A stretch of 24,107 nucleotides of DNA from an uncultured Candidatus Saccharibacteria bacterium (GTDB lineage: Bacteria; Patescibacteriota; Minisyncoccia; Phycocordibacterales; PALSA-1337), in contig CAZDRC010000002.1 of the NCBI GenBank assembly GCA_964507965.1, forward strand, positions 3,261-27,367. The letters are read 5' to 3'. The position numbers were made by a program, and so were the translations under genes. A model generated the notes under the pieces. The model had not been told where the DNA came from. It saw nothing but the letters and a program-made list of their open reading frames with translations, and did not search any database. Below, one piece after another: positions 1-1,656 of this stretch. How positions within the stretch are numbered: the first letter of the stretch is position 1; every line of letters begins with the position of its first letter.

Positions 1-1002
1 ATGATAAATTCAGAACAAAAGTTAAATCCAAAATTATTTGATAATGATATTGAACAATTACCAATACGTAAAGGTTTCGGTGAGGGTCTATTTATTGCAG
101 GTGATAGAGATAAGAGAGTAGTAGGTCTATGTTCAGATCTTACAGAATCAACACAGATGCATCTTCTACGTAATAAATATCCAGACAGATTCATACAGGT
201 AGGTATAGCAGAACAGAGTATGGTAAGTGTAGCATCTGGTATGGCCGCTATGGGTAAGATTCCTTTCATTACTTCATATGCAATGTTTTCTCCAGGTAGG
301 AATTGGGAGCAGATACGTACTACTGTTTGTTATAATAATCAACCAGTGAAGATTGCAGGCTCACATGCAGGTATATCTGTAGGTCCAGATGGAGGTACAC
401 ATCAAGCAATAGAGGATATGGCTATAACAAGAGTAATTCCTAATATGGTGGTGATATCTCCTTGTGATTCTATAGAAGCTAAGAAAGCGACAATAGCATG
501 TGCATCTACAAAACTCCCTACATATATACGTCTAGCTCGTGAGAAGACTCCAATTATCACAACAGAAGATACGCCTTTCGAGATCGGTAAAGCTCAATTA
601 CTTTTCTTTCCTGCCAATAATGAAAGAGCAGAAGTGGGAATTATAGTTACTGGTGCTCTAGTATATAAGGCATTGAGAGTAGCGAATGAATTGGAGAAAG
701 ATGGTAAGAAAGTAAAGGTGATAAATCTAGCTACGATCAAACCACTAGATGAAGATACTATTTGGAAATTAGCACATGAGACTGGTGCAATAGTGACAGT
801 AGAGGAACATCAGATCGCTGGTGGTATGGGTTCTGCAGTAGCGGAGTGTCTAGCGAGACATTACCCTGTACCGATGGAATTCGTAGGTGTTAAAGATAAA
901 TTCGGCCAAAGTGGCACACCAGATGAATTATTAGAATATTATGGAATGGGAGAAAAAGATATAAAAGAAGCTGTGAAGAAAGTACTATTGCGTAAAAAAT
1001 AA
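1..1002 (+). CDS. Transketolase, C-terminal (pyrimidine-binding + C-terminal domain) subunit of a split transketolase
   Basis: Motifs DLTEST, VGIAEQSM, HAGISVGPDGGTHQAIED and VTVEEHQIAGGMGSAVAE are typical of transketolase C-terminal/DXS-like subunits. The N-terminal TPP-binding subunit is not in the window. Confidence 0.9.
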   Translation: MINSEQKLNPKLFDNDIEQLPIRKGFGEGLFIAGDRDKRVVGLCSDLTESTQMHLLRNKYPDRFIQVGIAEQSMVSVASGMAAMGKIPFITSYAMFSPGRNWEQIRTTVCYNNQPVKIAGSHAGISVGPDGGTHQAIEDMAITRVIPNMVVISPCDSIEAKKATIACASTKLPTYIRLAREKTPIITTEDTPFEIGKAQLLFFPANNERAEVGIIVTGALVYKALRVANELEKDGKKVKVINLATIKPLDEDTIWKLAHETGAIVTVEEHQIAGGMGSAVAECLARHYPVPMEFVGVKDKFGQSGTPDELLEYYGMGEKDIKEAVKKVLLRKK

Positions 1003-1010
1003 TATAGGTA

Positions 1011-1016
1011 TACAAT
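1011..1016 (+). promoter_or_regulatory. Putative sigma70 -10 hexamer TACAAT upstream of the structured leader
   Basis: TACAAT lies 8 nt after the transketolase stop and 7 nt before a GTG at 1024, the same geometry as other promoters in the window. Confidence 0.45.
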
Positions 1017-1030
1017 AATCATCGTGAAAT

Positions 1031-1168
1031 ATACATCATATAATTTCATAAAGACACTGATTGTGAGCTCTAATTATTCCAGAGTTTGTCCTTATGATGT
1101 ATCTAAATAAAAGAAATTAAAGATAAATCATAAAAACGAGCTCTGGAATAAAATCTGAGCTCGTTTTT
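1031..1168 (+). promoter_or_regulatory. Candidate cis-regulatory RNA leader with mutually exclusive helices (P1-like / antiterminator / terminator)
   Basis: ATACATCATA 1031-1040 pairs with TATGATGTAT 1093-1102. TTATTCCAGAG 1074-1084 pairs with CTCTGGAATAA 1141-1151, and TTATGAT 1092-1098 with ATCATAA 1127-1133. AAAAACGAGCTC 1132-1143 pairs with GAGCTCGTTTTT 1157-1168. Confidence 0.55.
1132..1168 (+). terminator. Intrinsic terminator-like hairpin
   Basis: Perfect 12-bp inverted repeat ending in T5. Confidence 0.65.
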
Positions 1169-1235
1169 GCATGTTCTTGCCTACATGGCTGTAGGTGAAG
1201 AGAACAATGAGCAAAAATAGTACAAAGGCAGAAAA

Positions 1236-1562
1236 ATGAGTGGACATACTATAGACGCAGATACGGATCTTTTCCGTAAGAAGGAATTAGGTGCAGTCTT
1301 TTCTGGGCAACCTGTACATGGCAGTGTTGCTTGGAGAAAGAATGGGGATGAATGGGAAGAACTTATCTATTGGAATAAAGTACCAGAGGTAACTAGCTGG
1401 CTTACAGCAGAAGAATTCCGTCAACGCAAATATAATCTCAAGATTACTCATATTGCCTTCTTTCTGGCAAATCCACATCTCCTGCATGAGAAAATCAGAA
1501 GATCCAATCCTGATAGGCTCCTCAGAAGATTGGCTAGTCGACAGCCATATTACATGGACTGA
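1236..1562 (+). CDS. Hypothetical protein (108 aa), possibly frameshifted or truncated
   Basis: Open ORF with visibly higher GC than its neighbours. No family confidently recognised. Preceded by an ATGA-overlapping 10-codon ORF (1207-1239). Confidence 0.5.
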   Translation: MSGHTIDADTDLFRKKELGAVFSGQPVHGSVAWRKNGDEWEELIYWNKVPEVTSWLTAEEFRQRKYNLKITHIAFFLANPHLLHEKIRRSNPDRLLRRLASRQPYYMD

Positions 1563-1656
1563 AGAAGAATGTCCTTCTGCATCAAGCTGTTTGCATATTT
1601 CCTGCAGACAGCTTTTTCTATTTATCCTTTTTATCAATTTATGCTACTCTATCCAC

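Follow-up and report, generated by a model that had tools for sequence, protein, structure and literature searches.

What lies in the spacer of roughly 230 nt that separates a transketolase gene from a 108-aa open reading frame (ORF), and what does it sense? The question was raised by DNA from groundwater metagenomes, belonging to an ultra-small bacterium of the Patescibacteria (CPR) whose genome spans 530 kb in 64 contigs and is about 90% complete. The window, by which the whole analysed stretch of 24,107 nt is meant, corresponds to positions 3261-27367 of contig 2. The original prediction, made from the letters alone, had proposed a ligand-sensing RNA with three alternative hairpins that controls an unknown gene. 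The spacer was found to house a promoter, a mini-ORF, and a switch, and we consider it likely that these form a ribosome-mediated leader-peptide transcription attenuator on a leaderless transcript. The features of the locus, in window coordinates, are as follows.

1 to 1002, plus strand: transketolase C-terminal-subunit gene (Pfam), the 5′ neighbour of the element
988 to 993, plus strand: −35 box TTGCGT, overlapping the last transketolase codons (..LLRKK, then stop)
1011 to 1016, plus strand: −10 box TACAAT, 17 nt downstream of the −35 box and ending 7 nt before the GTG at 1024
1024 to 1110, plus strand: leader ORF of 28 codons with a GTG start, MKYTSYNFIKTLIVSSNYSRVCPYDVSK; its TAA (1108-1110) lies in the antiterminator loop
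1031 to 1040, plus strand: region 1a, leader codons 3-6, pairing with 1093-1102 as the anti-antiterminator
1066 to 1071, plus strand: region 1b (GAGCTC), pairing locally with 1081-1086 in a helix that takes up the base of region 2
1074 to 1104, plus strand: region 2, the antiterminator 5′ arm, within the leader ORF (codons 18-27)
1121 to 1151, plus strand: region 3, the antiterminator 3′ arm and also the terminator 5′ arm
1155 to 1168, plus strand: region 4, the terminator 3′ arm (stem 1157-1163, T run 1164-1168)
1163 to 1218, plus strand: post-terminator hairpin ("P5"), whose 5′ arm is the terminator T run (TTTTTGC ... GCAAAAA)
1236 to 1562, plus strand: regulated gene of 108 aa, in an unnamed family with the pattern FRxK..P.HG..GW..W.T..EF..RK..NP.LL..KI
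1584 to 1614, plus strand: terminator-like hairpin that closes the unit, 5′ of uvrB
1657, plus strand: ATG of uvrB, 3′ of the hairpin at 1584-1614

The three helices of the original prediction were all recovered in the sequence. The perfect 10-bp helix is an exact complement between 1031-1040 (ATACATCATA) and 1093-1102 (TATGATGTAT), the arms of the imperfect helix of about 30 bp (1074-1104 and 1121-1151) are 84% complementary, and the perfect 12-bp terminator joins 1132-1143 (AAAAACGAGCTC) to its exact complement at 1157-1168 (GAGCTCGTTTTT), with five T at the end. The antiterminator (2:3) and the terminator (3:4) are mutually exclusive and share region 3, and region 1, which pairs with region 2, lies inside a leader ORF that has a credible start. 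The last hairpin has the build of an intrinsic terminator, with a CGAGCTC/GAGCTCG stem followed by TTTTT at 1164-1168; its stem is 12 bp in most relatives, and the T run is short or broken in some of them (e.g., GTTCTGT, GCTTTCG). Relatives carry ..CTGGAA.. as the counterpart of region 1b, pairing with TTCCAG.

Folding of positions 1003-1180 gave a minimum free energy of −50.5 kcal/mol, compared with −26.8 ± 3.8 kcal/mol in 200 dinucleotide shuffles (z = −6.3; none of the 200 folded as well). When the fold was masked as if by a ribosome over region 2, the terminator formed, and a mask on codons 5-16 yielded the antiterminator. At equilibrium, the 2:3 fold reached −45.4 kcal/mol versus −32.7 kcal/mol for 1:2 plus 3:4. 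Because the antiterminated fold wins at equilibrium, the behavior of an untranslated transcript is uncertain, and according to this folding model it may, in contrast to the trp attenuator, escape termination.

The post-terminator hairpin begins in the T run in all 20 examinable relatives (loci among L029-L051). Its stems differ between relatives through compensatory changes, for example GTTTCGTAT/ATACGAAAC and TTCTGTATT/AATACAGAA, with others of the TTTTGCA...TGCAAAA type. A short semi-conserved motif, AGCACAAA or AGTTCTT, was observed after this hairpin.

Simpler accounts of the hairpins were set aside. The stretch occurs once in its own 530-kb genome, and a repeat or mobile-element reading was rejected on that ground. 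It was also rejected as a plain terminator of the transketolase gene, because a conserved promoter sits between the end of that gene and the hairpins. The transketolase gene lacks its own terminator ahead of the switch, and read-through from it would enter the leader untranslated. A minus-strand ORF at 1287-1637 was discarded, the conserved protein family being encoded on the plus strand. Rfam models searched against the whole window returned two tRNAs and nothing else.

In BLAST comparisons with 40 relatives, the hairpin region was conserved and little else of the spacer was. A covariance model built from eight copies of the element detected exactly one plus-strand copy in 23 of the 45 genomes of the genus. 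It also picked up single copies from ten further families of the order. Covariation was scored on 21 copies aligned independently with MAFFT. Across these sequences, pairing reached 86% in helix 2:3 and 94% in helix 3:4, and both partners had changed at 12 of 27 and 8 of 13 pairs, respectively; none of 500 shuffles reached the value for either helix. Slid controls paired at 31-49% for helix 2:3 and at 21-50% over helices 2:3 and 3:4. Triple substitutions, in which regions 2, 3, and 4 change together, were seen in G041, G019, and G013. Region 1 paired with its own region 2 at −17.6 kcal/mol and with those of other copies at −13.5 kcal/mol, and the corresponding values for region 1a were −11.75 and −8.34 kcal/mol (0 of 5000 permutations as low in both comparisons); support for region 1b was weaker, since 235 of 5000 permutations were as low. 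The hairpin loop and the segment enclosed by helix 1 vary freely in sequence and in length (5-25 nt). Because the 1:2, 2:3, and 3:4 pairings are conserved and covary, the three competing helices are real and under selection. Homologues and covariation in related genomes, for which the original prediction had called, back its layout of anti-antiterminator, antiterminator, and terminator, that of an OFF-switch with its own promoter.

A reduced form of the switch, GAGCTCGTCTTTGG...AAAAACGAGCTCTGAAC.GGCTCGTTTT, was observed at L049 (G056; 1501-1616) and L050 (G007; 1501-1630). There it adjoins the stop codon of the 5′ protein-coding frame and has no separate leader ORF, and the end of the preceding gene may act as the leader.

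The front of the element is kept as well. A sigma-70 promoter, with TTGCGn or TTGACA located 16-18 nt before the −10 box, was found in 31 of 31 elements, the −10 box often following TG; the −10 box that had been proposed at position 1011 proved to be the TACAAT of the window copy. In 27 of the 31 elements the −10 box ends 6-9 nt before the ATG or GTG, and because of this spacing the transcript is predicted to begin on the start codon or no more than about 2 nt from it, that is, to be leaderless. No Shine-Dalgarno sequence was found before the leader start codon; several downstream genes have a clear one. GTG, which serves less well as a leaderless start in some bacteria, begins the leader in the window, in two other members of the genus, and in the poly-Phe leader of G143.

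Downstream of this start, all 31 elements keep the leader frame free of stops over 21-31 codons, whereas 4 of 31 do so in frame +2. Between the start codon and region 2 lie 50, 53, 56, or 59 nt in 20 of the 21 copies; insertions and deletions here thus come in threes. The leader ORF, of 24-31 codons, spans regions 1 and 2. Most copies place its stop within the antiterminator loop or beside it, and a few (G019, G030, G013, and L105) place it in the distal part of the 5′ arm.

The decisive pointer to what such a frame is for comes from homologous elements. In other families of the order, the promoter, the leaderless mini-ORF, region 2, a AAAAACGAGCYCTGG-type region 3, the terminator, and the post-terminator hairpin recur, and the following copies lie in front of aromatic or histidine pathway genes.

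G143: leader VQSIINTYFFFFFFFFWSALP.. (..YFFFFFFFFW..), before DAHP synthase (Pfam E 4e-64)
G071: leader MKNTRFNFFFFSFYG.. (..FNFFFFSF..), before DAHP synthase (Pfam E 1e-81)
G150: leader MKFFGNNFGHHHTNLF.. (..GHHHT..), before HisG
G147, second locus: leader ..NPFAHTHANLE.., before a 134-aa gene that appears HisI-like as read from its sequence

In these His/Phe-type homologues, which carry the post-terminator hairpin too, the regulatory codons precede region 2 by 3-11 codons. Were a ribosome to stall at those Phe or His codons, it would lie over region 1 and region 2 would stay free, which is the textbook logic of trp, his, and phe attenuation. None of the Rfam leader models (His, Phe, Trp, Thr, Leu) matched homologues L062, L064, L067, and L098 at E ≤ 1. 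Because the ORF is kept in frame and because Phe and His runs precede aro and his genes in the homologues, the sensor would be the translating ribosome, not a small-molecule pocket.

Further copies of the scaffold were observed. L097 (G129, minus strand, 1501-1637) is a weak one with a Thr/Ile-rich leader, MNFIKRNLQTLIKTITTTVEVSLVSR, that recalls thr leaders. In L063 (G147), L065 (G129), L066 (G141), L068 (G120), and L061 (G069) the scaffold stands before ORFs of 61-76 aa that match no Pfam families, one of them with sub-threshold zinc-ribbon matches. The leaders of these small ORFs are Phe-rich in G147 and G129 and have two adjacent His codons in G069; those of the G141 and G120 copies have no codon run.

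The proposed mechanism in the window runs as follows. Transcription would start at or next to the GTG at 1024, and a ribosome would translate the 28-codon leader. In the OFF state, an unhindered ribosome would enter region 2 (codons 18-27) and proceed to the stop in the loop, keeping region 2 single-stranded; region 3 would then pair with region 4, and the stem with its T run (1164-1168) would end the transcript before the 108-aa gene. In the ON state, a ribosome delayed within about codons 8-16 would sit on region 1, leaving region 2 free and preventing 1:2 pairing. The far more stable 2:3 hairpin would form, the terminator would be blocked, and RNA polymerase would reach 1236-1562. The start site, the termination point, translation of the leader, its coupling to transcription, and the direction of control are all inferred here from sequence.

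The cue that would delay the ribosome may be the availability of one charged tRNA or a few of them, or general translation speed. In the window leader, no single codon is repeated in a run. Most leaders of the genus, and several from out-of-genus relatives, place an F-[I/T]-K motif some nine codons ahead of region 2, and its Lys codon (1051-1053 in the window) is nearly always AAG. Over codons 3-19 of 27 distinct leaders, Lys was encoded by AAG 40 times and by AAA 7 times, against a genome ratio of 42:58 (binomial p 2e-9, computed ignoring relatedness). Thr is about twofold enriched in the leaders, and hydrophobic codons are also kept in the clade. The leaders of distant relatives differ (FSFSYFLLVL, YLIIPVGFL), and F-[I/T]-K(AAG) is missing from two of these relatives, L113 and L114, which weakens a lysine-specific reading of the leader; that reading is not claimed. 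No riboswitch or T-box that replaces the attenuator was found in the distant relatives of the gene, among which L110 has one weak T-box fragment before a downstream tRNA-synthetase gene. As a separate observation, the assembly has a tRNA-Lys(CUU) gene.

The switch could also be read by the ribosome and still gauge overall translation capacity (a shortage of ribosomes or of initiation, inhibitors, or the efficiency of leaderless initiation) rather than one charged tRNA. This is possible, although we regard it as somewhat unlikely: it fits a leader without a codon run, the divergence of leaders among distant relatives, a regulated gene that is not a biosynthetic enzyme, and an untranslated leader that favors the antiterminator at equilibrium, but the preference for AAG (40 versus 7 for AAA, against 42:58 in the genome) and the fixed distance of F-[I/T]-K from region 2 suggest specificity for a codon or a peptide. 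A further reading, which we regard as doubtful, is that the leader is not an amino-acid gauge; F-[I/T]-K(AAG) would be a stalling peptide or a sensor of a Lys isoacceptor, inducing the chromodomain-like protein of about 100 aa, which would act on ribosomes or nucleic acids, upon translation stress, and the unit would be a mobile cassette in CPR.

The gene behind the switch belongs to a small family. Genes of this family of about 100 aa were found in 21 of the 45 genomes of the genus, with the element directly upstream in 20 of the 21 and the remaining copy at a contig end. Nine further checkable relatives of the gene, metagenomic or from outside the genus, carry the upstream element, although in one of them (L110) the front half of the element alone is readable before a run of N. 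Because the neighboring genes differ among relatives while the element stays upstream of the gene, the promoter, leader, switch, gene, and terminator appear to travel as one unit; it is the upstream neighbor of the gene that varies. Among about 395 searched genomes of the order outside the genus, the gene was detected at E ≤ 1e-4 in 2. An exhaustive HMM search of 1.84 billion representatives yielded 92 clusters, all about 100 aa and unnamed, and a word-index search with the 108-aa protein yielded 2 close homologues; a search for related loci with this single protein as the query found nothing.

The 108-aa protein had no match in Pfam or NCBIfam, none in a PDB sequence search, and no match of weight in structure searches (Foldseek, VIA-align, Atlas). 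Its confident model (pLDDT 84.6) shows three strands forming a sheet, together with helices. The product is basic, and conservation in the family does not extend to the last 20-30 residues. By language-model features, its nearest look-alikes are eukaryotic chromodomains (0.91, 182 shared features); Pfam gave no match to the chromodomain family PF00385 itself. From these features and weak structure matches, a chromodomain-like fold is suggested as a lead only.

Chromodomain-type domains, with their small sheet and helix, often bind nucleic acids. It is conceivable on this basis that the product of about 100 aa, or another RNA-binding protein, shifts the balance between 2:3 and 3:4 and that the small ORF is incidental, and the strict linkage of element and gene, together with a basic product that looks like such a domain, would agree with this. 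We nevertheless hold protein-mediated control to be very unlikely, since regions 2-4 also precede DAHP synthase, HisG, and the HisI-like gene in searched genomes where the gene of about 100 aa was not found, and the constraints on frame, phase, and leaderless start would be left unexplained.

Even less credit can be given to the ligand-sensing riboswitch of the original prediction, in which the stretch closed by 1031-1040 and 1093-1102 is an aptamer that chooses between terminator and antiterminator. The part of that claim concerning the gene stood, in that a conserved gene of about 100 aa follows at 1236-1562; the part concerning the ligand was not supported, as there is no aptamer match and the loops are variable. 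The echo of purine (xpt-type) riboswitches that had been noted was not borne out, the element having no Rfam match at gathering thresholds and no Purine or 2′-dG model matching at E ≤ 10, where the element returned chance matches to long-hairpin microRNA models alone. The related statement that the RNA has no recognizable family was upheld, as cmscan of Rfam gave no real match, leader families included. A three-state layout and a few conserved non-canonical positions in the long helix (e.g., G.A at 1099/1126 in 17 of 21 sequences) are what one might expect of a riboswitch; against it, both the loop and the enclosed segment differ among copies in sequence and in length (5-25 nt), conservation resides in the stems and in a reading frame with indels in threes, and the scaffold is common to his and aro genes with cognate codon runs, which one ligand pocket cannot explain.

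The leader peptide itself ends in ..SRVGxCDVS in many genomes, and its N-terminal half is poorly conserved. G019, L105, and G060 either read the region 2 arm in a different frame or have lost 1 nt ahead of it, and because the arms of these three relatives encode unrelated peptide ends, the conserved ..SRVGxCDVS is a by-product of the RNA helix. That the locus exists for a functional micro-protein of 28 aa, with the hairpins only ending its transcript as a plain or leaky terminator, is for these reasons scarcely credible in spite of the conserved ORF and its recurring end, given that it is the 5′ arm of a covarying helix that codes for the conserved C-terminal residues, that homologues have poly-Phe or His leaders before matching pathways, and that a covarying antiterminator and anti-antiterminator would be superfluous for a plain terminator.

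If the element is indeed an attenuator read by the translating ribosome, ultra-small, host-dependent Patescibacteria would use classical ribosome-sensed attenuation, which would imply close coupling of leaderless translation to transcription. One antiterminator/terminator scaffold serves aro genes, his genes, and the gene of about 100 aa in different families. For annotation, a spacer of 230 nt that looks "empty" becomes a promoter, a mini-ORF, and a switch, and the protein of about 100 aa is flagged as the product of a tightly regulated gene that is probably responsive to starvation or translation stress. In the literature searched, no paper linking Patescibacteria with attenuators was found.

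In the enterobacterial attenuators trpL, hisL, pheL, thrL, and leuL, the position of the ribosome on a translated leader sets the fold of the RNA. The element shares with them a short leader ORF, overlapping 1:2, 2:3, and 3:4 pairings, and an intrinsic terminator, and its homologues carry Phe or His runs before aro or his genes. It differs from them in lacking a Shine-Dalgarno sequence, the ORF starting at the 5′ end of the predicted transcript, and in that the ORF extends across region 2 to a stop codon within the antiterminator loop. The window leader, moreover, is missing the classical defining feature, a codon run, the target is a non-enzymatic protein of about 100 aa, and a conserved extra hairpin is built on the terminator T run. 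None of the Rfam covariance models Trp_leader, His_leader, Phe_leader, Thr_leader, and Leu_leader matched in the window. With the purine riboswitch (RF00167), the element has in common only the generic aptamer/antiterminator/terminator layout; it has no conserved junction or loop-loop core, and the segment that would be enclosed by P1 is here coding and variable.

Leaderless sensory short ORFs at which ribosome pausing controls downstream genes have been described in Actinobacteria (PMC3890552; 10.1101/834739). They include the leader peptides of trpE, leuA, ilvB, and aroF in Corynebacterium glutamicum, which are leaderless short-ORF attenuators (PMC3890552), and the mycobacterial polycysteine leaderless sORFs of Canestrari et al., where a downstream ribosome-binding site is reported to be unmasked (10.1101/834739). 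The element resembles these in having a sensory short ORF at the 5′ end of a leaderless transcript. Its output, in contrast to that mycobacterial Cys system as reported, would be an intrinsic terminator and not the unmasking of a ribosome-binding site; the Actinobacterial attenuators also have cognate codon runs, and the lineage here is Patescibacteria. Stalling on a leader peptide without a run relieves transcription attenuation at the mef(E)/mel and msrD leaders (PMC4335068; 10.1101/2021.11.29.470318). Such resistance attenuators share with the window a leader peptide lacking an amino-acid run, a likeness by analogy alone that bears on the F-[I/T]-K motif, whereas nothing here ties the switch to an antibiotic or a resistance gene. 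By its proposed mechanism the element is a classical leader-peptide attenuator, of an RNA family absent from Rfam, and its particular traits are the leaderless start, an ORF that extends into the antiterminator loop, a leader without a codon run, a non-enzymatic target, and a hairpin on the T run.
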